A stretch of 64,000 nucleotides of DNA from an uncultured Clostridia bacterium (GTDB taxonomy: Bacteria > Bacillota > Clostridia > Christensenellales > CAMQZB01): contig CAZIPL010000002.1 in assembly GCA_964541255.1 (NCBI GenBank), positions 589 to 64,588 on the forward strand, read 5' to 3'. Within the stretch, counting starts at the first letter, position 1. The number at the start of each line of letters is the position of its first letter. Below the pieces are notes generated by a model. That model did not search any database. It had not been told where the DNA came from and saw only the letters and a program-made list of their open reading frames with translations. Positions 6,794-48,439 of this stretch are shown here, piece after piece. Made by a program: the position numbers and the translations under genes.

Positions 6794-7525
6794 TCAATTT
6801 TTCGAAACGAATTGCTTCGGAGTTTCTCCGTATGTCTTTTTGAAAAGTGCTATGAACGCGCTTTGCGAGCAAAAGGACAGGGTATAAACGATTTTCGAAA
6901 CGCTATATCCCGCGGTAAGAAGAATTTTGCTCTCCTCGAGCTTTCTTCCGAGTATATATTGCTTCGGGGTTTTGCCGAGATACTTCGAAAACAGCCTCGT
7001 GAAGTGGTTTTCGGAATAACCCGAAAGCTTGGCAAGGTCTTTTACGGGGATGTTTTCGTGCAAATGCTTTTCGATATGATCGAGGGCTATTCTTATGCTT
7101 TTCGGGCAGTTTTTGCCACGCGATTCCCCTACGGCTTTTGTAAGCGAAACGACCTTTTCGCTTATGAACGTAATAATTTCTTCCGTCGAATTCATTTCGT
7201 CTATCGCTCGAATATATTCGTCGGAGAGGTTAAACGCTTCCATTTCGTCCAATCCACCCGAAATTGCCGCTCTTGTGGCGAGCGTTATCGACGCGACCGC
7301 AAAATATTTAGACTGTCTCAACGGGTCTTTCGAAAGCTTTCCCGCGACAACTCCTTTTTCGAGCATAGAATCCCGAGCGGCTTCGATATGGTCGATGTTG
7401 CCGTCTGCGATGAAAGAATAGAACGCGTTTTCCTCCGCAACGGTGGTGTGCGATATGGGACTTTCCCTCTGGTCGAATTTGTTTGTTTCGGGCGCTATGA
7501 TAAGCCCCTTTTGATGTTTCTTCAT
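6794..7525 (-). CDS. AraC-family transcriptional regulator
   Basis: The 243-aa ORF has a C-terminal AraC HTH (VKDLAKLSGYSENHFTRLFSKYLGKTPKQY...SFCSQSAFIALFKKTYGETPKQF). A GAGGGG RBS lies upstream of the ATG. Confidence 0.85.
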   Translation of the reverse strand: MKKHQKGLIIAPETNKFDQRESPISHTTVAEENAFYSFIADGNIDHIEAARDSMLEKGVVAGKLSKDPLRQSKYFAVASITLATRAAISGGLDEMEAFNLSDEYIRAIDEMNSTEEIITFISEKVVSLTKAVGESRGKNCPKSIRIALDHIEKHLHENIPVKDLAKLSGYSENHFTRLFSKYLGKTPKQYILGRKLEESKILLTAGYSVSKIVYTLSFCSQSAFIALFKKTYGETPKQFVSKN

Positions 7526-7898
7526 TTTCCCCTCTAATAAGTTTTTTCTTGATTTCGTATTTTGATGTTCGCATTAAAAGCGATATGATTATTTTCAAAG
7601 ATATCCGTTGAATGTTCCTAAATGAGGCTGCAAGACATCTTTTTTGTATGTTCTTAAAATCTTTAATTGTCTATTCGTCGAAATCTATACCGATTAAGTT
7701 TGAAAAACTTTTTAGTTCGTCTCGCAAACGGATAGCTGATAAAGACTAATGCTTCTTCATTCATTATATATATAAAACGATAGCATATTTTCTTTAAATT
7801 TGCAATGATTTTTTGATATTTGTTTGGATTTTGTGATATAAAATTTGGTGTGTATGGTATAAAATGATTATAATGATAATTATAGGGAGAAACGAAAA

Positions 7899-10495: not shown

Positions 10496-12310
10496 ATGAA
10501 GAAAAAATTAGCGATTGTTCTTGCGGTAGCATTATTGCTGACGATGCTTGGCGGACTTACCGCTTGTAGCTCCGACGACGGAACGTTTACTTGGCTCCTT
10601 TCGAAAGGCGCTGACGAATCGTTTATTTCAAGCTATAACGAAAATCCGTCGATTAAGTATTTGCTCTCGAAAGAGTATAACGGAAACAAGCTTGACATCG
10701 ATTTCAAAACCATGGTTGCAGGTTCTGAAAGCGATCAATTCCAGACTATGATTTCGACGGGCGAATATTATGATATTCTCGACGTTGTGTATTCGGGATA
10801 TTCCGTCGAAACGCTATATGAAATGGGCATTGCTCTCGATTTGACTGAGCTTATCGAAGAGTATATGCCTAACTACGTCAAGTTTGTTAATTCTAACGAA
10901 GAGCTAAAGATGTATGCATATACCGAAGTTGACGGCGAAAAGAAAATGCTTCAAATAGTAGGCGGCGGAGATTCTCCGACGTTGGCATTTGAAGGATATA
11001 TGTATAGAAGAGATTGGATTGTTAAGTACGGAACAAATCCTTCTACGGGCGAACCTTTTACGGGCGGATATTCGGCGAAAAATGCCGACGGAACAAACGA
11101 CGTCAACTCTTGGAGCGATAATATCGTGTTCCCGTCTTGGTACTTAGATAATAAATATGTTACGGAATATAAAGCAAATCACCCCGAATGGGACGGAACC
11201 GATCCAGTGTTTATTTCCGACTGGGAATGGATGTTCGGAGTTTTCGAAAAAGCGTTTGAAGATTTAGGTGTGACGGACAGCTATATGATGTCGATGTATT
11301 ATCTTGGCTATCTTGAAACGGGTGACTTCTATTCTTCTTTCGGTGGTGGATCTCCGCTTTGGTCGAAAGACGAAAACGGGAACGTAACTTTCAATGCTTC
11401 ATCGGATTCCATGAAAGCGTATTTGGAATGCCTCAACGCTTGGTATGAAAAGGGGTGGCTCGACCAAGAATTTAACGAACGTTCGTCTGCGGGAATGTTC
11501 TGGACGATAGACGTTGCCGCTTCGTCGCAAGGAAAAGTTCCTATGTTCTGTGGCGGTCTCGGTAAAATCGGAAATAGTCTTGAGACGGAAGAATATCCTT
11601 TGACTAAAGATATGATGTTGGCGCCTGCGAGACTTCCCATTAACGATGTTTACGGAACCGAAAACGAAAAAGGCATTGAGCCCGATGGCCTTTACGAGGG
11701 TACTTATTATAAAGGTTCCGTTATAATCACTTCTAACGCCGCGAACAAAGACTTGGAAACGCTCTTGACTTTTATTGATAGTTTATATACCGACGACGCA
11801 ATGATGGTTATGTCACTGGGGCTTAATGCTGAGCAGTACGAAGAGATAAAAGATAGCTTGGAGAAAAATAAAGACGGTCTTGACATTATGGAAAGATATA
11901 ATATGCAAAGCGGTGCGTATTATTATGAAGATGGCAAGCTATTTCGTGCGGATGCTATTAGTGATGTAAACTATTTGCAACAAGCAGCTTGTGCGGACAG
12001 GGTTTGTATAGGTAAAAAGCTTATTGGCGGAATATCTCTGAAAAACAGCGTTATGACTAAGGCTTATGAAGAGTGGATGATATATACGTCTTCTTCAAAC
12101 GTAAGTAATTATTCAAGCTTCTTCAACGAAGAGGATTCTACGACTTATAGCAGAGTTCGCAATTCTATAAATACAAAGATGTCTGTCGAGATTCCTAAAT
12201 TTATTATGGGAGAATATAATCTCGATTCCGATTTCGAAACTTTTGCTAAGACCATAAACAAAATGGGACACGCTAAAGTTACCGCCATTTTCGAAAACTA
12301 CACTAAATAA
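10496..12310 (+). CDS. large extracellular solute-binding lipoprotein (ABC-type sugar SBP, LipO-like), copy 1
   Basis: The 604-aa ORF has a lipoprotein signal peptide with an LTAC lipobox and an AAGGAG RBS. It is a paralog of 12873..14699. Confidence 0.8.
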   Translation: MKKKLAIVLAVALLLTMLGGLTACSSDDGTFTWLLSKGADESFISSYNENPSIKYLLSKEYNGNKLDIDFKTMVAGSESDQFQTMISTGEYYDILDVVYSGYSVETLYEMGIALDLTELIEEYMPNYVKFVNSNEELKMYAYTEVDGEKKMLQIVGGGDSPTLAFEGYMYRRDWIVKYGTNPSTGEPFTGGYSAKNADGTNDVNSWSDNIVFPSWYLDNKYVTEYKANHPEWDGTDPVFISDWEWMFGVFEKAFEDLGVTDSYMMSMYYLGYLETGDFYSSFGGGSPLWSKDENGNVTFNASSDSMKAYLECLNAWYEKGWLDQEFNERSSAGMFWTIDVAASSQGKVPMFCGGLGKIGNSLETEEYPLTKDMMLAPARLPINDVYGTENEKGIEPDGLYEGTYYKGSVIITSNAANKDLETLLTFIDSLYTDDAMMVMSLGLNAEQYEEIKDSLEKNKDGLDIMERYNMQSGAYYYEDGKLFRADAISDVNYLQQAACADRVCIGKKLIGGISLKNSVMTKAYEEWMIYTSSSNVSNYSSFFNEEDSTTYSRVRNSINTKMSVEIPKFIMGEYNLDSDFETFAKTINKMGHAKVTAIFENYTK

Positions 12311-12872: not shown

Positions 12873-14699
12873 ATGAAGAAAAAATTAGCTGTTGTTTTAG
12901 CGGTAGTATTACTTATCGCTTCGTGTTTTGGTTTTTCGTCGTGTTCTAAAGAAGGGGACGGAACTTTCACTTGGCTTCTTTCTAAGGGCGTAGGCGAAGA
13001 GTATATGTCAAGCTACAATGAAAACCCCGTAGTCAAGTATTTGCTTTCTAAAGAGTATAACGGAAACAAGCTTGACATCGATTTCAAAACCATGGTTTCG
13101 GGTTCTGAAACCGACCAGTTCCAGACTATGATTTCGACGGGCGATTATTATGACGTTATGGATATAGCGTATTCTTCATATTCAATCGAGGCGCTTTATG
13201 AGCTTGGCGTAGCACTCGATTTGACGGAATACGTAGAAAAATATATGCCCAATTACCTTGCTTTCATCAATTCTCACGATGAGCTTAAGATGAATGCATA
13301 TACCATTATTGACGGCGAGAAGAAAATGATTCAGCTTGTTGCCGGCGGAGACGAAAAGTCCGTTACTTTCTGCGGATATATGTATCGAAGAGATTGGATC
13401 GTTAAGTACGGAACGAATCCTCAAACGAGTGAGCCTTTCACGGGCGGATACTCGGCTAAAAACGCCGACGGAACAAACGACGTCAACTCTTGGAGCGATA
13501 ATATCGTTTTCCCGTCTTGGTACTTAGACAATGAGTATGTTACGGAATATAAAGCGAACCACCCCGATTGGGACGGAACGGACCCCGTGTTTATTTCCGA
13601 CTGGGAATGGATGTTCGAAATTTTCGAAAAAGCATTCGCCGATTTAGGGGTTACGGATAGCTATATGATGTCGGTATATTACCCCGGATTCCTTGGAACG
13701 GGTGATTTATTCTCCTCGTTCGGCGGCGGTGCTCCGGGATTTTCGTTGGGCGAAGACGGAGTATATTTCAGCGCAACCTCCGACACAATGCTTTCATATC
13801 TTGAATGTATGCGCAATTGGTATGAAAAAGGCTGGCTCGATAACGCTTTCTATGAGCGTTCTTCCGATATGTTCTATAAAATAGATTCCGCAGCTGTGGC
13901 ACAAGGCGAAGTCCCTATGATTTTGTCGGGACAAGGCAATATCGGAAATTCTATTGAAACGGAACAGTATCCTTTGACGGAAGGCGTTATGTTTATGCCG
14001 ACAAGACTTCCCATCAATGATGTATACGGAAAAGACAGCACAAAAGGGCAGGAACCTGATTGTTTATATCAAAGTACATATAAAAACGGATCTGTTATCG
14101 TTACTTCTAACGTTTCCGAAAAAGATTTGCCGACGCTCTTGACTTTCATCGACAGCCTTTATACGGACGAAGGAATGCTCCTTACTTCGCTCGGACTTAA
14201 CAAAGAGCAGTACGAAGAAATAAAAGACAGCTTGGAGAAAGACAAAGAGGGCTTAGATATCTATGCAAAATACGGTCTTACGGAAGGCGCGTATAGCGTA
14301 GAAAACGGCGTCTATTATGCGGCAGATGTCGTAGAAAACGGCGGATATTTGAAGCAAGCGGTCACGAACGGCAGAATTTCTGTCGGCAAAATACTAAATA
14401 ACGTTGCGGTAAGAAATGACGTTATAAATAAAGCCAACAAAGAATGGATGATATATACTTCGACGAAAGACATTATAAACTATCTTGAATTTTTCGATGA
14501 TGAACAATCAAAGACTTACAATCGTTATTCGAATAAGATAAACGACAAAATGTACGTTGAAATTCCGAAATTCATTAAAGGTGAATATAACCTCGATTCC
14601 GATTTCGAAACGTTTGCTAAGACAATGAACAAAATGTCGCCCGACAAGGTTTCGGAAGTCTTTAACGAGGTCTTGAAAAATTACGGGATAATCGAATAA
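12873..14699 (+). CDS. large extracellular solute-binding lipoprotein (ABC-type sugar SBP), copy 2
   Basis: The 608-aa ORF has a signal peptide with an SSC lipobox and an AAGGAG RBS. It is collinear with copy 1 over its full length. Confidence 0.8.
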   Translation: MKKKLAVVLAVVLLIASCFGFSSCSKEGDGTFTWLLSKGVGEEYMSSYNENPVVKYLLSKEYNGNKLDIDFKTMVSGSETDQFQTMISTGDYYDVMDIAYSSYSIEALYELGVALDLTEYVEKYMPNYLAFINSHDELKMNAYTIIDGEKKMIQLVAGGDEKSVTFCGYMYRRDWIVKYGTNPQTSEPFTGGYSAKNADGTNDVNSWSDNIVFPSWYLDNEYVTEYKANHPDWDGTDPVFISDWEWMFEIFEKAFADLGVTDSYMMSVYYPGFLGTGDLFSSFGGGAPGFSLGEDGVYFSATSDTMLSYLECMRNWYEKGWLDNAFYERSSDMFYKIDSAAVAQGEVPMILSGQGNIGNSIETEQYPLTEGVMFMPTRLPINDVYGKDSTKGQEPDCLYQSTYKNGSVIVTSNVSEKDLPTLLTFIDSLYTDEGMLLTSLGLNKEQYEEIKDSLEKDKEGLDIYAKYGLTEGAYSVENGVYYAADVVENGGYLKQAVTNGRISVGKILNNVAVRNDVINKANKEWMIYTSTKDIINYLEFFDDEQSKTYNRYSNKINDKMYVEIPKFIKGEYNLDSDFETFAKTMNKMSPDKVSEVFNEVLKNYGIIE

Positions 14700-22026: not shown

Positions 22027-23409
22027 ATGAAAAATCTGCAAAAACAGTACGCTAAAGAGCAAAAAGAGCTATTAAGGCGTAGAAAAATGGCTGCTCGCCA
22101 CGAGAGTAAATATGCAATGGTCATTGCGTTTATCCTCGTTGTATGCATTCACGTAGTTGACGAATTGGCGACGAACCTCCCGGGATACTTGCAGACCTCG
22201 TTGGTAAACGAGTTCTTTGTTATCGGAGAGGGCCTTACTTACACCGAAGGCTTGGCTAAGATGTCGGCAAGGGGCATGATTGTTACGGTTCTCGTATTCT
22301 TCGCACCGTTCTATAAAACCCTTGCAGACCGCTTCGGCAGAAAGCCATTCCTTGTAATCAACACCGCTTGCTTTGGCTTGGGAATGTTGGTTTGCTTCTT
22401 GGCTAAAAACTATTGGGTATATCTTTTAGGTTCTGCGATTATGAGCTTCTTCGTAGCACACGATATGCAGGTTACCTACATTTTGGAAGTTGCTCCCGCA
22501 GACAAGCGTACGACGTTCTACGGCGTAACGAAGTGTCTCGGTACTATCGGTCTCGTTCTCGTTCCGTTGTTCAGAGATATCTTCATGGGTAACGACGGTA
22601 CGCAGTGGAGAATGGTATTCTTCGTTCCTATCTTTATCGCTTTCGCGGTTGCGATTATGGCGTTCTTTATGGGACACGAGACAAAGGTATTCTTGAATCA
22701 AAGAATCGAATATCTCGAAAAGCCTATCGAGCAGAGAGAAAGAGAAAAAGCAGAAGCGAAAGCTGAAGCTGCGAAAAAGCCCGGAATTTTCCAGGCTATC
22801 AAATATATTTTCAAAGAGACGAAAGACCTTAGATGGTTGGTTGTAGCAATGCTTGTTTATTATGCAGGTATGATGGGATTCTCTTCTTATTATGAATCTA
22901 TCATGTCTACGAGCGGCATGGAGACTGCTGAAGTTACGCAAGCGCTTTACGTATATCCTTTCGTATTCGCCGCAATAGTTCTCCTTTGCGGATTCTTGGG
23001 CGACAAGATGGGAAGAAAGACTACTATCGTTGTCATGGGCGGTGTTTCTATCGTCGGATTCATTCTCTTCTGCGTTGGTTGTGCGAACGGATGGCATCCT
23101 TACATCGTCGGATTCCTTTACGGTATTTACCTCGGTTGCTACTGGCAGGCGGGCGATTACATGCAAGTAATGGTTTCTGAAAAGGCACCTACGGAAATAA
23201 GAGCTTCCGTAACGGGCGCAATCGGACTTTTGCAGTTCTTCTGCGTATTCGTCGGAATGGGAATTATCCTCGTTCTTCTTAACAACAACGTTCCTTTGAA
23301 TCTTACGTGTCTTCTCGTTGCAACGCCGTTCATCATCGCGGGGGTTCTTCTCGTTGCGTTCAAGGTAAAAGAAACCAAGGGCGTAGACCTTTCCGAAGCG
23401 GGAGAATAA
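22027..23409 (+). CDS. MFS transporter, copy 1
   Basis: The 460-aa ORF is a 12-TM-type protein with an LADRFGRKP MFS loop signature and a central charged EQREREKAEAKAEAAKKP linker. Confidence 0.85.
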   Translation: MKNLQKQYAKEQKELLRRRKMAARHESKYAMVIAFILVVCIHVVDELATNLPGYLQTSLVNEFFVIGEGLTYTEGLAKMSARGMIVTVLVFFAPFYKTLADRFGRKPFLVINTACFGLGMLVCFLAKNYWVYLLGSAIMSFFVAHDMQVTYILEVAPADKRTTFYGVTKCLGTIGLVLVPLFRDIFMGNDGTQWRMVFFVPIFIAFAVAIMAFFMGHETKVFLNQRIEYLEKPIEQREREKAEAKAEAAKKPGIFQAIKYIFKETKDLRWLVVAMLVYYAGMMGFSSYYESIMSTSGMETAEVTQALYVYPFVFAAIVLLCGFLGDKMGRKTTIVVMGGVSIVGFILFCVGCANGWHPYIVGFLYGIYLGCYWQAGDYMQVMVSEKAPTEIRASVTGAIGLLQFFCVFVGMGIILVLLNNNVPLNLTCLLVATPFIIAGVLLVAFKVKETKGVDLSEAGE

Positions 23410-23564: not shown

Positions 23565-24950
23565 ATGAAAAATCCTCAAAAGCAATACTTGAAAGAGCAA
23601 AAAGAGCTTGCAAGGCGCAGAAAAATGGCTTCGCGCCACGAAAGTAAGTATGCGCTTGCTATAGCGTTCGTCTTGGTAGTTCTTATCCATATCGTAGATG
23701 AGCTTGCAACAAACCTCCCGGGGTATCTTCAAACCTCGATAGTAACGGAGTTTTTCGTTATGGGGAAGGGACTCGATTATAACGAAGGCTTGTCGCAGAT
23801 GTCGGGATATAGTATGATAATCTCCGTGCTTGTCGCCTTTGCGCCGTTCTATAAAGCACTTGCCGACAAATTCGGAAGAAAGCCGTTCTTGGTTATGAAT
23901 ACGGCGTTTTTCGGACTCGGAATGCTTATTTGCTTCCTTGCGCCGCAATATAATTATCCTATGTATTTGGTCGGTGCGGCTATCATGAGCTTCTTCACCG
24001 CGCACGATATGCAAGTTACGTATATTCTCGAGGTTGCTCCTGCCGAAAAGCGCACTACTTTTTACGGCATAACAAAATGTATCGGAACACTCGGACTTGT
24101 TTTGGTTCCGCTTTTCAGAGATGTGTTTATGGGTGACGACGGCACAAAGTGGAGATGGGTGTTCTTTGTTCCTATCTTTATTGCATTCGCGGTTGCACTG
24201 CTCGCGCTTTTATTCGGTCACGAAACGAGAGTATTTGTCGATAGGAGAATCGAATATCTCGAAAAACCTGTCGAGCAAAGAGAAAGGGAAAGAGCTGAAG
24301 CAAAGGCGGAGGCTGCGAGAAAGCCGGGCGTTTTCCAAGCGATTAAATATATCTTCAAGGATACCAAGGATCTTCGAATTCTTGTTATAGGACTTCTTGT
24401 TTATATTACGGGCATGATGGGATTTTCGAACTATTACGAGTCCATTATGTCAACGAGCGGAATGGGAACGGCTGAAGTTACTCAAGCGCTTTACGTATAT
24501 CCCTTCGTATTTGCCGCGATAATTCTTCTTTGCGGACTTTTGGGGGATAGCGTCGGAAGAAAGACGACGGTAGGAATAATGGGCGGACTTTCGATAATCG
24601 GGTTCATACTTTTCTGTATAGGCTGCGGTCGCGGTTGGGATCCGTACTTTATCGGTTTCCTTTACGGTATTTATTTGGGTTGCTATTGGGAAGCGGGCGA
24701 TTATATGCAGTTGATGGTTTCGGAAAAAGCTCCTACGGAAATAAGAGCCTCCGTCATGGGCGCCGTAACGCTTATGCAGTTCTTCTGCGTGTTCATCGGT
24801 ATGTTTGCGATTATGTTCCTTATGACAAAGCTTTCTCTTGCACTCACTTGCCTTATCGTTGCAACGCCGTTCATTATCGCGGGCGTGTTGATTGTTCTTT
24901 TCAACGTTAAGGAAACAAAAGGCGCGGATCTTTCTACTGCGGGGGAATAA
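23565..24950 (+). CDS. MFS transporter, copy 2 (paralog of 22027..23409)
   Basis: The 461-aa ORF is collinear with copy 1, including the EQRERERAEAKAEAARKP linker. Confidence 0.85.
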   Translation: MKNPQKQYLKEQKELARRRKMASRHESKYALAIAFVLVVLIHIVDELATNLPGYLQTSIVTEFFVMGKGLDYNEGLSQMSGYSMIISVLVAFAPFYKALADKFGRKPFLVMNTAFFGLGMLICFLAPQYNYPMYLVGAAIMSFFTAHDMQVTYILEVAPAEKRTTFYGITKCIGTLGLVLVPLFRDVFMGDDGTKWRWVFFVPIFIAFAVALLALLFGHETRVFVDRRIEYLEKPVEQRERERAEAKAEAARKPGVFQAIKYIFKDTKDLRILVIGLLVYITGMMGFSNYYESIMSTSGMGTAEVTQALYVYPFVFAAIILLCGLLGDSVGRKTTVGIMGGLSIIGFILFCIGCGRGWDPYFIGFLYGIYLGCYWEAGDYMQLMVSEKAPTEIRASVMGAVTLMQFFCVFIGMFAIMFLMTKLSLALTCLIVATPFIIAGVLIVLFNVKETKGADLSTAGE

Positions 24951-43667: not shown

Positions 43668-43963
43668 AGTTGCCTCCAAGTGAGATTAAAAGCAAAAAAA
43701 CTTTTTTCTATTGTATCATAAAAAGTATCGTTTGAAAACCCTTTTTTAAAATATTTTTCGTGGGATTTATTGGCATATATATTGAATAAAACCAAGTTGA
43801 CTAAGCTAAAATAAGTTTTGCCTAAAATATCGAAATATGCCGTTACGTTTTTTGCGATTATCTTTATTGTATTTTGAGAAGTTACTTTCAGGTTTTGCAA
43901 TTTGATTGCAATAAATGTTCGATTTATAGTATCAATGGATAGCCGATACGCAAAGTAGTTCCA

Positions 43964-44001
43964 AAATAAAAAACTGCGTAAGCTTTTTTTGCTTACGCAG
44001 T
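43964..44001 (-). terminator. Rho-independent terminator of the small-peptide triplet
   Basis: 11-bp stem actgcgtaagc/gcttacgcagt. On the minus strand it is followed by UUUUUUAUUUU. Confidence 0.8.
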
Positions 44002-44016
44002 TAGTCTTTTTTGTTA

Positions 44017-44115
44017 TTACATTCTCGAATTAGTCGTCATAAAAAGTCTTCCGTATAAATCTACCGTTTTTTCCATGCTCTTGACGAATTTTCTGACCTT
44101 TCTTTTAAGTTTCAT
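44017..44115 (-). CDS. 32-aa basic amphipathic small protein, copy C (most diverged)
   Basis: MKLKRKVRKFVKSMEKTVDLYGRLFMTTNSRM. GGAGG lies 7 nt upstream. Below the ORF-track size cutoff. Confidence 0.7.
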   Translation of the reverse strand: MKLKRKVRKFVKSMEKTVDLYGRLFMTTNSRM

Positions 44116-44155
44116 AATAATACCTCCTGTTTTCTTAACATTTTTCGTTTTCTAA

Positions 44156-44254
44156 TTATATGGCAAAGTTGTTGACGATAAAGAATCTTCCGCGAAGTTC
44201 CGTGTTTTTCTCCATATTTTTAATAAATTCTCTGATTCTTCTTTTAAGCTTCAT
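44156..44254 (-). CDS. 32-aa basic amphipathic small protein, copy B
   Basis: MKLKRRIREFIKNMEKNTELRGRFFIVNNFAI. GGAGGG lies 8 nt upstream. Confidence 0.75.
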   Translation of the reverse strand: MKLKRRIREFIKNMEKNTELRGRFFIVNNFAI

Positions 44255-44290
44255 AATAAATACCCTCCTATTTTCTTTGCGTTTTTCTAA

Positions 44291-44389
44291 TTACATAGCA
44301 ATATTGTTTGTGATGAAAAGTCTTCCGCGAAGTTCTGTGCTTTTCTCCATGTTCTTGATAAACTCTCTAATTCTTCTTTTAAGTTCCAT
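44291..44389 (-). CDS. 32-aa basic amphipathic small protein, copy A (promoter-proximal)
   Basis: MELKRRIREFIKNMEKSTELRGRLFITNNIAM. GGAGG lies 9 nt upstream. Confidence 0.75.
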   Translation of the reverse strand: MELKRRIREFIKNMEKSTELRGRLFITNNIAM

Positions 44390-44418
44390 TTTAAATTACC
44401 TCCGAATCTTTATTTCTG

Positions 44419-44502
44419 GTTATAGTATGCGCTTTGTCAATAAATAAATGTGAACTTAAACGTAAACTTTTCGTAAAATGACGTTAAATAAACGTAAACT
44501 TT
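44419..44502 (-). promoter_or_regulatory. activator-type promoter region: -10 TATAAC plus four phased TT(T/A)ACG hexamers
   Basis: The minus strand reads GTTTACGTTTATTTAACGTCATTTTACGAAAAGTTTACGTTTAAG. The hexamers start 11, 10 and 11 nt apart. The outer 13-mer AAAGTTTACGTTT (plus-strand AAACGTAAACTTT, 44458-44470 and 44490-44502) is repeated exactly 32 nt apart. Confidence 0.5.
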
Positions 44503-45707: not shown

Positions 45708-46523
45708 TTAAAGCAAGTTTTCGTTTTGCTTATCTTTTATCAAGGCGATGTATTTGTCGATAGCGGACAGCCAAGAAGACATATCGAGCTTTTCGCTCAA
45801 AACAACCGACTCGCCGTTTTTGATTGTGGCTAAAAAATCTTTTTGAATTCTTCGAAATTGCTCTGCTAATTCTTTTTGATCGATTAGCTCCAACATCGTG
45901 ATGCCGTCAAGAAGTGTTGTTCGGAACAAAGTGTTCATTTCTAAAACAAGCTCGTCTTTCGTTTTTATCGCTTGGCAAAAGTTTTGAATGTCGAGTTTAT
46001 ATTGCTCCAATACTAATAAAGAGCGAAGAAATAAATCTTCGAAATTCGGAGTGGAAATAGGGGATTTTTCTATTGTGGCAACAATTACAATGTCGTCTAA
46101 CCGTTCTATCAACTCTTTTTCCGTTAAAAGCAATCTTTCGGGTTCACTACTATTTTCATGTTTGTTGTTGATAAAAACAAAACGGTCACCTTCGATTTCG
46201 GAATAGACGACGGCGTGTTTTTCCGTTTGGGTTATTTTTAGACCTATCATGGCGGTGCTACATTTACGAAGATAATCGAGTAAGTCGCGGCTTTTTACGG
46301 CGGTTTCCGTCATGGAAAAGCCCAATGTGTTCAAATATAGGTTGAAATGATTTGCGGTTTGCAGCATTGAGCCCGATGAGTAGATACCGTCGTTATATTC
46401 AAATAAGTATGGCAAATTCATTCCTAATGCAATTTGCCTATCTTCCGCGTCTAAGCCGTGACGTAGCAACATATTTGCAACTCCCGCAAAGGCACAAGAC
46501 GAGTTAAAGGTCATATATTTCAT
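45708..46523 (-). CDS. hypothetical protein with N-terminal papain-like (C39-like/BtrH-N-like) cysteine peptidase fold
   Basis: 271 aa. NSSCAFAGVANMLLRHGL (C10), then KHAVVYSEIEGDRFVFINN (H103, D113/N119), match the order and spacing of a Cys-His-Asp/Asn triad. The C-terminal half is helical. No SD precedes either candidate ATG. Confidence 0.45.
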   Translation of the reverse strand: MKYMTFNSSCAFAGVANMLLRHGLDAEDRQIALGMNLPYLFEYNDGIYSSGSMLQTANHFNLYLNTLGFSMTETAVKSRDLLDYLRKCSTAMIGLKITQTEKHAVVYSEIEGDRFVFINNKHENSSEPERLLLTEKELIERLDDIVIVATIEKSPISTPNFEDLFLRSLLVLEQYKLDIQNFCQAIKTKDELVLEMNTLFRTTLLDGITMLELIDQKELAEQFRRIQKDFLATIKNGESVVLSEKLDMSSWLSAIDKYIALIKDKQNENLL

Positions 46524-47617: not shown

Positions 47618-48439
47618 TTATTCGAGAGGCATATCCATTCTGCTGAATCTATCGAGTAAATCGTCTTCTTCGCTTTGGATATTTGCCATACGCTCGATTT
47701 CGTTTCGGATATTCAGCATTTCGAAATCCGTTTCGTTGATTACTTCCGCGCAAGCTTTAAGTCTTGAGATGACGTCGCTTTGCTTGGGAAGAGCTTGCTT
47801 ATATTTGAGCTGATGCTCCAAGCTTGCCCAAAAATCCATTGCGATTGTACGTATTTGCACTTCGACTTTCACTTTCTTTTTATATTCTGCAAAAAAGACG
47901 GGCACCTCGACGATAAGGTGTAAGCTTCTATAACCGCTCTCTTTCGGGCTTTGAATATAGTCCTTTTTGGTAATCAAGGTGATGTCGTCTTGCTTGAGCA
48001 GTGCGTCGGCAAGTGTATATATGTCATCGACGTACGAGCAAATGATTCTTACTCCCGCAACGTCGCGAATGTTTTCTTCGATTGCTTCCATCGAAAAAGG
48101 AAGTCCCATACGAGAGAGTTTCTCCGCGATACTCGAAGTACGCTTCAAGCGCGTCTGAATTCCCGTGATGGGATTTCTTTTATAGCGAATTTTGAATTCG
48201 GTATTCAAAACTTCGAATTTCGTGCGGATTTCCTTTATCGCACAGTTATATCTCATCATCAGCTCTTTATATTCGACTAACGTCCCCATTGCGTGCTTTG
48301 TGTGATTCATCAGTCTATTGAAAGACGCTTCCGTAACGGCGGGAACGCCTATCGAACGTGAAGACGGGTCGTTTGTCGAGTCTTTGATCCATTGGTCAAT
48401 GTCGTTAAAATCGAGTGAATCCGTCCTATCGTCTTGCAT
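47618..48439 (-). CDS. small alarmone synthetase, RelP/RelQ (YwaC/YjbM) type GTP pyrophosphokinase
   Basis: DVAGVRIICSYVDDIY...DYIQSPKESGYRSLHLIVEVP...EVQIRTIAMDFWASLEHQLKYK is collinear with B. subtilis YwaC. GGAGG RBS. Confidence 0.88.
   Translation of the reverse strand: MQDDRTDSLDFNDIDQWIKDSTNDPSSRSIGVPAVTEASFNRLMNHTKHAMGTLVEYKELMMRYNCAIKEIRTKFEVLNTEFKIRYKRNPITGIQTRLKRTSSIAEKLSRMGLPFSMEAIEENIRDVAGVRIICSYVDDIYTLADALLKQDDITLITKKDYIQSPKESGYRSLHLIVEVPVFFAEYKKKVKVEVQIRTIAMDFWASLEHQLKYKQALPKQSDVISRLKACAEVINETDFEMLNIRNEIERMANIQSEEDDLLDRFSRMDMPLE

Follow-up and report, generated by a model that had tools for sequence, protein, structure and literature searches.

A rare family of predicted 32-residue basic peptides encoded in tandem behind a conserved five-repeat promoter block in uncultured Clostridia

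The stretch of DNA analysed here, 64,000 nucleotides (nt) from an uncultured Clostridia bacterium (assembly GCA_964541255.1, contig CAZIPL010000002.1, positions 589 to 64,588 of the forward strand; hereafter the window, numbered from its first letter), contained three tandem open reading frames (ORFs) on the minus strand. ORF A (44291-44389; MELKRRIREFIKNMEKSTELRGRLFITNNIAM), ORF B (44156-44254; MKLKRRIREFIKNMEKNTELRGRFFIVNNFAI), and ORF C (44017-44115; MKLKRKVRKFVKSMEKTVDLYGRLFMTTNSRM) each comprised exactly 33 codons encoding 32 amino acids (aa), with A and B belonging to paralog type 1 and C to type 2, as defined below. Each was preceded by a GGAGG ribosome-binding site (RBS) at 44399-44403, 44264-44268, and 44123-44127, lying 9, 9, and 7 nt before the ATG of A, B, and C, respectively. 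The start-to-start distances were 135 nt (A-B) and 139 nt (B-C), and Tandem Repeats Finder reported a 135-nt period with 80% match. A degenerate codon pattern of the peptide core matched three times in the window, against 0.00 matches expected from 100 shuffles. An earlier note on this DNA had described three minus-strand units of 135-139 bp, each with GGAGG 7-9 nt ahead of an ATG and 33 codons, and the measurements agreed with it; the ORF listing and translations were identical to its peptides in every letter, and a recount gave the same 9 synonymous and 6 non-synonymous codon differences between A and B. The genes had also been called unannotated, which holds in that no name is attached to them, but the three peptides were already present in a 15-billion-protein collection as predicted proteins from an NCBI record. 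ORF B is evidently a recent duplicate of ORF A. The G+C content of the module (44017-44403) was 31% versus 43% for the whole window, which is explained at least in part by the A-rich Lys, Arg, and Glu codons.

The most informative feature, which the earlier note missed, is a conserved five-repeat promoter, probably of activator type, just upstream of the region it described. Five direct 7-mers on the minus strand formed an array (44449-44499) comprising R1 (44493-44499, GTTTACG), R2 (44482-44488, TTTAACG), R3 (44472-44478, TTTTACG), R4 (44461-44467, GTTTACG), and R5 (44449-44455, GTTCACA), which are candidate sites for a response regulator of the OmpR/PhoB type. The putative core promoter (44424-44455, minus strand) consisted of TTCACA within R5, a 19-nt spacer, and the -10-like CATACT (44424-44429), and it was followed by the 5' leader (44390-44418, minus strand; CAGAAATAAAGATTCGGAGGTAATTTAAA), which contained the RBS of ORF A. 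At the other end of the triplet, an intrinsic terminator with a 12-bp stem, 6 GC pairs, a 7-nt loop, and a T-run was located on the minus strand at 43972-44002 (feature 43964-44002); the earlier note had placed it at 43964-44001.

The family comprised nine distinct peptides from four lineages: the window, a congener found in 24 Logan metagenome contigs (L001-L010), the metagenome-assembled genome (MAG) "uncultured Clostridia bacterium" GCA_964406735.1 (L011/L012), and a relative of that MAG (L015). Two further 32-residue clusters came from a profile search and one more variant via a cluster table. The window held three copies and each of the other lineages two; a protein of the neighbouring ATP-binding cassette (ABC) system in L001 was 83% identical to that of the window. 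Paralog types were separated by the C-terminal third of the peptide. Type 1 (...RLF[IM]T[NA]N[IF]AM) included window A, window B, and L001-1, type 2 (...Y[GA]R[LF]F.TTN[ST]R[ML]) included window C, L001-2, L011-1, and L015-1, and type 3 (...YEKFFLSG..RR) included L011-2 and L015-2. Type 2 was present and well conserved in every lineage while the partner type differed by lineage, and each locus always had at least two different peptide types.

Substitutions were counted by the Nei-Gojobori method as proportions of synonymous (pS) and non-synonymous (pN) differences. All nine peptides were exactly 32 aa long and each gene had a GGAGG-type RBS, while the spacers between ORFs varied from 36 to 49 nt (36-40 in the window, 38 in L001, 37 in L011, and 49 in L015). 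The 33-codon frame, the RBS, and a variable copy number (two to three), which the earlier note had proposed to check in relatives, were kept in the three further lineages. ORFs A and B differed with pS 0.69 and pN 0.09, and their differences fell 4/2/13 on the three codon positions (p=0.004). The corresponding counts were 7/0/16 for ORF C against its ortholog, L001 copy 2 (p=0.0002; zero second-position changes), and 9/3/17 for L001 copy 2 against L011 copy 1 (p=0.006). Copy 1 of L011 and L015 showed pS 0.14 and pN 0.03, with the neighbouring non-coding DNA 10% diverged, and the synonymous sites of the ORFs were saturated between the window and L011. The third-position excess, with pS far above pN for A versus B, upholds the proposal that selection acts on the protein and not on a DNA or RNA repeat. 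In type 3, copy 2 of L011 and L015 had 13 of 32 residues changed, and pN (0.20) exceeded pS (0.06), with flanking DNA at 0.10; the excess over the flank was marginally significant (p=0.047).

A different reading would make the locus a non-coding DNA or RNA repeat or small RNA array, a gene for the 95-aa mirror ORF on the opposite strand, or a type I toxin paired with its antisense RNA. Two observations lend it something. Rfam returned a single sub-threshold match to the trpB motif (31 bits versus the gathering score of 59) over ORF C and the terminator, and long stop-free antisense stretches occurred in every lineage, including the plus-strand ORF of 95 aa reported earlier, which does exist at 44160-44447. 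The trpB identity was rejected as sub-threshold and terminator-driven. No Rfam family, and with it no known non-coding element of the kind that the earlier note had named as telling against its genes, matched at the gathering score. The folding z-score of the approximately 450-nt transcript was +0.64, with no excess structure apart from the terminator. The antisense ORF was rejected as a real gene because the open frame and its length differed among lineages, and the antisense openness arises because the sense codons are A/G-rich. No hydrophobic stretch in the peptides was long enough for a membrane toxin, and the transmembrane helix and conserved antisense RNA of type I systems were both absent, the weak antisense promoter-like site of the window not being conserved in L001. 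Together with the sense-frame third-position excess and the 33-codon length of nine of nine peptides despite changing spacers, these findings make a non-gene origin extremely improbable. Judged by the fixed length, the third-position excess, the unstructured mRNA, and the lack of an Rfam family, the three ORFs are almost certainly genuine protein-coding genes under purifying selection on the protein, arranged in a real coding operon.

Each of the other lineages had its own unrelated hairpin and T-run right after the last ORF, and for this reason the conserved unit was taken to be the repeat array, promoter, leader, two or three ORFs, and a terminator. On sequence evidence, this unit is a self-contained polycistronic operon of conserved small-protein genes with strong RBSs, one terminator, and a constrained cis-regulatory block. 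In a pattern scan, the operon terminator of the window, whose stem is preceded by an A-run and followed by a T-run, scored as bidirectional. A transcript of about 75 nt ending at this terminator could arise from a weak plus-strand promoter-like site at 43902-43930; the site was not conserved in L001 and is probably a chance occurrence.

The block of about 113 nt directly upstream of the first ORF was the best-conserved DNA of the locus, with identities of 108/113 (L011 versus L015), 98/113 (window versus L001), and 88/113 (window versus L011). Between lineages, the repeats, spacer, -10, and leader were 78-96% identical, and constraint was stronger on the promoter region than on synonymous sites within the ORFs. 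The block was kept in all lineages, including those in which the flanking genes differ. The DNA directly upstream of repeat 1 was unalignable even between L011 and L015, and since L015 has different DNA at that place, the first GTTTACG repeat marks the exact start of the conserved module. The start-to-start spacings of the repeats were 11, 10, 11, and 12 nt in every lineage, with the consensus GTTTACG and a last unit of GTTCACA. Alignments of window/L001/L011 and of L011/L015 showed that the 7-mers were conserved while the 3-5-nt spacers between them were variable, and that R5 was followed by 16 nt and then by the invariant GCGCATAMTA. The -10-like hexamer was CATACT in the window and CATAAT in the other lineages. 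TTCACA matched the -35 hexamer at 5 of 6 positions and stood 19 nt from the -10, a non-optimal spacing, and the xGTTCA hexamer ended 21 nt (about two helical turns) upstream of CATAMT, with a predicted transcription start. A simple sigma-70 scan did not call the promoter, which is consistent with a non-canonical, activator-dependent one.

In the leader, CAGAAATAAAGATTYGGAGGTAA was identical in all four lineages and the following base was T in the window, L001, and L011 and C in L015, so that the near-invariant leader was CAGAAATAAAGATTYGGAGGTAAT with its final T replaced by C in L015. Irrespective of paralog type, the first ORF carried its first five codons (ATGGAACTTAAAAGA, MELKR) along with the conserved leader in all lineages, except that codon 4 in L001 was AGA instead of AAA, giving MELRK; leader and first five codons together occupied 44375-44418 in the window, 7973-8015 in L001, 7973-8015 in L011, and 402-444 in L015. 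Downstream copies mostly began with MK[LI]K. This leader-linked start suggests either that translation initiation is constrained or that recombination has taken place there.

The geometry of the array was compared with promoters switched by OmpR/PhoB-type regulators. The Salmonella PhoP box, (T/G)GTTTA-N5-(T/G)GTTTA, is bound head-to-tail and is active at 12, 23 or 33 nt from the -10 (PMC3335776), and Gram-positive PhoP has PHO boxes built from two to five 11-nt direct-repeat units (PMC7866108). Such promoters call for two or more direct half-sites with spacers of about 5 nt on one face of the DNA, and the operon had five repeats at periods of 11, 10, 11, and 12 in all four lineages. Its proximal site lay an integral number of helical turns (21 nt) from the -10, with a defective -35 (19-nt spacing). 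It shares with OmpR/PhoB promoters the direct hexamer or heptamer repeats of 11-bp period, the xGTTTA core, the range of 2-5 units, the proximal pair about two turns from the -10, and the poor -35 spacing. It differs in that the host is a member of the Clostridia, no regulator gene lies nearby, and the candidate sites number five, which is odd if dimers bind. All hexamers also fit the Bacillus subtilis PhoP half-site TT[ATC]ACA at 5-6 of 6 positions, and phosphate limitation is for this reason a candidate signal, offered as a lead. The promoter is probably activator-dependent; that the activator belongs specifically to the OmpR/PhoB type is, by analogy, favoured by a little.

Another account of the same promoter would have the genes encode small structural proteins of the spore or stationary phase, transcribed by a sporulation sigma factor with a sigma-G/K/E-type -10 while the repeats bind an accessory regulator. 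In every lineage the -10 region was either CATACTA or CATAATA, which resembles the consensus of forespore and mother-cell sigma factors; a tandem set of tiny, high-dosage genes, each with a strong RBS, would also suit such proteins in a member of the Clostridia. However, no matching -35 was present at the spacing expected for such sigma factors, the five phased repeats were the dominant conserved feature, the family was absent from nearly all Clostridia, and there was no similarity to the families of small acid-soluble spore proteins. A spore protein is considered improbable.

The nine peptides were strongly basic, with a net charge of +4 to +8, an isoelectric point of 10-11.5 (10.1-11.5), and 34-47% charged residues. 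Their grand average of hydropathy was -0.35 to -0.90, and the best 9-residue Kyte-Doolittle mean was at most 1.8. A composition check found no Cys, Trp, Pro or His in the family, and there was no signal peptide, Gly-Gly leader or site, transmembrane stretch or hydrophobic run of 18-20 residues; the absence of signal peptide, Cys, and Gly-Gly motif first noticed in the three window peptides extends in this way to every family member. M1, E15, K16, and F25 were invariant, and F10, [LI]3, [KR]4-6, [KR]8, and [KR]23 nearly so. The invariant E15-K16 and F25 with the nearly invariant F10 point to a specific interface. AlphaFold2, run with a five-sequence alignment, predicted a single helix over residues 2-30 with a mean predicted local distance difference test score of 81, about 90 over the first 20 residues and declining C-terminally. 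The predicted helix was amphipathic; compared with shuffled sequences, its hydrophobic moment was significant for type 2 (p<=0.001) and marginal for type 1 (p 0.06-0.10). The best 11-residue window lay on the boundary of the Eisenberg "surface" region. The mean hydrophobicity (<H>) was -0.19 to -0.36 versus +0.20 for PSM-alpha3, a phenol-soluble modulin (PSM). In polarity and charge the peptides were near LL-37 and much more polar than PSM-alpha3, delta-toxin, and melittin; the comparison with these peptides is indicative only.

Between paralog types, residues 1-16 were the most conserved and residues 26-32 the most variable, which, with multiple paralogs per locus, would suit a precursor of a secreted signal or of a ribosomally synthesised and post-translationally modified peptide (RiPP), in which the basic N-terminal 23 or so residues form the leader and the variable C-terminal 9 or so the mature pheromone or core. 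Such a role had been among those suggested by the earlier note and is disfavoured here, while its small regulatory protein and its membrane-active peptide both stay candidates. The C-terminal tail was conserved among orthologs and was modelled by AlphaFold within the same helix. There was no Cys or Ser/Thr-rich core, Gly-Gly site or signal peptide, and no NCBIfam RiPP-precursor model matched. No gene for a radical-SAM enzyme, cyclase, peptidase, AgrB-like protein, dedicated exporter or RRNPP/Rgg receptor adjoined the module in either of the two genomic contexts described below, and Pfam searches of the neighbours, the gene tables of L001 and L011, and NCBIfam gave no co-located modification, protease or export genes and no known precursor family. 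Nor did the features of RRNPP/Rgg or Agr pheromones appear, with no such neighbour and no Cys, hydrophobic body or acidic tail in the peptides. The precursor reading is regarded as very improbable.

The module occupied two genomic contexts. In the window and L001 it was flanked by a divergent mscL on one side and, beyond the terminator, by fhs in its own orientation on the other, beside the rpoA-rplQ end of the ribosomal cluster. The order in L011 was an ABC exporter pair, about 1 kb of repeat elements, the module, a convergent tRNA-Leu, and polA. Apart from the module itself (promoter, ORFs, and terminator), no gene was common to both contexts, and no transporter, immunity, peptidase, modification or receptor gene was shared by both. 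An ABC exporter pair was present within 1-5 kb of the module in each context; the pairs were only 25-27% identical, and a functional link to them was dropped because they are not orthologs. MscL homologs were used to find the corresponding loci of relatives. In a relative with a 90%-identical MscL (L016, 1181-3594; L017), the module was absent, fhs was inverted relative to the window, and it lay upstream of mscL with a spacer of 161 nt, which points to an inversion or indel polymorphism at the mscL-fhs junction among close relatives. Relatives with MscL proteins 86%, 79%, 78%, and 76% identical had no module near mscL.

Searches for described relatives were almost entirely negative. Pfam and NCBIfam gave no family even at E<=10, the best PHROGs match had an E-value of 0.06 to one member only, PADLOC gave none, and the best PDB match had an E-value of 0.48. 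A hidden Markov model of the three peptides, run against 1.84 billion representative proteins, recovered only this family and one spurious repeat protein, and a search with a 64-aa concatenated alignment had no match, very short proteins being probably poorly indexed there. Among genome contigs, 343 stretches matched by pattern and 0 passed tblastn, while peptide B had no exact match in the contig index, though the peptide is present in the protein collection. Across 185,579 species-representative genomes, the degenerate DNA codon pattern found one carrier, the L011 MAG. It gave two chance matches only in Joint Genome Institute (JGI) metagenomes (L013 without RBS and L014 with an internal stop) and none in viral contigs. 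Plasmid and phage collections gave no relevant match by tblastn or blastn, and peptide substrings were not found in the full text of the literature. The earlier failure to recognise the family is in line with the lack of a matching family in Pfam, NCBIfam, PHROGs, PADLOC, the PDB, and Rfam. By these searches, the family is undescribed, very rare, and patchy, hence accessory, and a member of no described protein family.

A rare family with such a layout has a close rival reading, in which the products form a leaderless multi-peptide system of cationic peptides with antimicrobial or cytolytic activity, like aureocin A70, garvicin KS, the LsbB family or PSM-alpha. Formyl-Met peptides would be exported by a non-adjacent or generic ABC exporter and would attack competitors at their membrane or at a surface receptor, the N-terminal helix would serve as membrane anchor and the variable C-terminal tail would confer specificity, and a two-component system responding to quorum or stress would induce the operon. 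Leaderless multi-peptide bacteriocins (aureocin A70, garvicin KS, and the LsbB/EntK1/EJ97 group) are cationic helices of 30-35 aa encoded head-to-tail without a leader. The operon shares with them a head-to-tail series of genes for cationic helical peptides that lack a leader or signal peptide, every gene having an RBS to itself, and thereby has the at least two tandem genes for cationic leaderless peptides of 30-50 aa by which such systems are recognised; it also shares with the LsbB group an N-terminal helix followed by a variable C-terminal tail. The two or three tandem 32-aa paralogs, the significant amphipathicity of type 2, a charge and hydrophobicity near those of LL-37, at least two peptide types at every locus, the rare and patchy distribution with presence and absence among close relatives, one fast-evolving paralog, a probably regulator-dependent promoter, and an ABC exporter pair 1-5 kb away in each context would all be at home in this reading.

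The differences from such peptides were considerable, however. The nearby ABC pairs are not orthologous and no immunity gene is conserved, and linked export or immunity genes (ABC transporter, PH-domain, and small membrane proteins) were missing as a shared feature of the two contexts. No PDB chain, in a set that includes structures of leaderless bacteriocins and PSMs, and no bacteriocin family of Pfam or NCBIfam showed sequence similarity to the peptides. They are much more charged and less hydrophobic than leaderless bacteriocins and have no Trp, no Gly-rich segments, and 2-5 acidic residues including the invariant Glu; their mean hydrophobicity is well under that of bacterial cytolytic peptides, and type 1 is barely amphipathic. 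Staphylococcal PSMs are hydrophobic peptides of 20-25 aa controlled by AgrA, a LytTR protein that binds 9-bp repeats with a 12-bp spacer. The operon resembles that of PSM-alpha in its tandem tiny genes for leaderless amphipathic helices, and PSM-alpha is switched on directly by a response regulator, as is proposed here, with its exporter encoded elsewhere. It differs in that <H> is above 0 there versus -0.2 to -0.4 here, an indicative comparison, and in that five 7-mers recur here at a 10-12-bp period, so that neither the hydrophobicity of a PSM-like cytolysin nor a LytTR promoter was found. An antimicrobial or cytolytic function is on this evidence judged unlikely, while standing as the nearest competitor to the explanation favoured below.

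That explanation is of signal-induced leaderless mini-proteins under an OmpR/PhoB-type switch, acting intracellularly on an anionic or protein target. With 19 nt between TTCACA and CATAMT, the promoter would by default be silent. It would be switched on when a phosphorylated response regulator of the OmpR/PhoB family binds the five GTTTACG half-sites head-to-tail on one face of the DNA; the half-sites recur every 11 bp, and some two helical turns separate the proximal pair from the -10. From the repeat architecture and the defective -35/-10 spacing, a two-component system whose genes lie elsewhere in the genome would drive the operon as its activator-dependent output. The peptides may then act unprocessed and in bulk inside the cell, which is the weakest step, and may form hetero-oligomers of the universal type 2 with a lineage-specific partner. 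The conserved basic and hydrophobic helix face would bind the target, for which RNA or the ribosome, DNA, and a specific enzyme or sensor are candidates. Intracellular, unprocessed action is favoured because no export, processing, immunity or sensing gene accompanies the module, and because the peptides are very polar with invariant charged and aromatic positions. They would be likened to other stress-induced small basic proteins and not to an exported or modified precursor. Bacillus subtilis has such small basic proteins in the Fur-regulated FbpA/B/C and the PhoP/TnrA-controlled ykzB-ykoL, which are thought to bind RNA or protein partners. Shared features are the very small size, basic character, lack of an export signal, stand-alone genes, and a strongly regulated promoter; the differences are that there is no sequence similarity and that those genes are single-copy, against tandem paralogs here.

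Several points weigh against this explanation. The fast evolution of one paralog (type 3), the tandem amplification, the patchy distribution, and the absence from the relative with a 90%-identical MscL would be expected of a secreted toxin or signal more than of a housekeeping regulator. Charge and composition resemble those of LL-37, and export genes need not adjoin the module. As to the switch, neither a response-regulator nor a kinase gene was found in the 64-kb window; the repeat motif was absent elsewhere in the window and in the fetched loci outside the module, with no second array; the repeats could serve another kind of DNA-binding protein; and the -10 CATAnTA also resembles the -10 elements of sporulation sigma factors. 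The chain as a whole is held tentatively, at somewhat less than even confidence. A broader formulation, in which the module is a mobile "plug-in" two-component output of leaderless 32-residue helical hetero-oligomers, pairing the universal type 2 with a fast-evolving partner, is a doubtful possibility; its two options are antimicrobials without a dedicated exporter or immunity gene, amounting to a new two- or three-peptide class from gut or rumen-type Clostridia, and an intracellular effector reprogramming a conserved machine, amounting to a new kind of small-protein effector. By analogy, the locus would hold an orphan small-protein family with a well-defined regulatory switch, functionally resembling known kinds of small-peptide operon.

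Proteins of fewer than 50 aa systematically escape detection, and for few of them has comparative genomics given clean proof of coding. The proof here is unusually clear (fixed length, codon-position bias, and conserved RBS) for a family that is an orphan among 1.84 billion representative proteins, and the sharply defined cis-regulatory switch makes the module directly testable. If secreted, the peptides would constitute a new leaderless antimicrobial family from anaerobic Clostridia, and if intracellular, a new effector of a two-component system. The five-repeat promoter would also offer a handle on an uncharacterised regulon in uncultured or poorly studied Clostridia.

Other candidate associations of the module were rejected. 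A link to the neighbouring AraC regulator, mscL or fhs was set aside, as these are absent from the L011/L015 context and the terminator separates the ORFs from fhs. A role in attenuation or as leader peptides was dropped because L011 has no downstream gene, the neighbour there being the convergent tRNA-Leu. A link to a 271-aa ORF (45708-46523, minus strand), which lies between mscL and the AraC-family gene and has no Pfam match at E<=10, was rejected on that ground and for its absence from L001, where the AraC gene directly adjoins mscL.

Between the AraC gene and the ABC exporter pair, the window also contained a 273-aa ORF (47618-48439, minus strand) with only a RelA_SpoT synthetase domain, of the small alarmone synthetase type, which was not at the corresponding place in L001. 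In L011, the non-coding region 7000-7850 contained two direct repeats, each about 250 bp long, in which tandem CACTATT motifs and a GTGGCGTTTACGCCAC hairpin occurred; further hairpin elements were present, and the whole resembles a set of repetitive extragenic palindromic or miniature inverted-repeat transposable (REP/MITE-type) elements. Two further tandem paralog pairs with near-identical N-termini were present in the window, one of 604/608-aa lipoprotein-like proteins (10496-12310 and 12873-14699) and one of 460/461-aa proteins (22027-23409 and 23565-24950).

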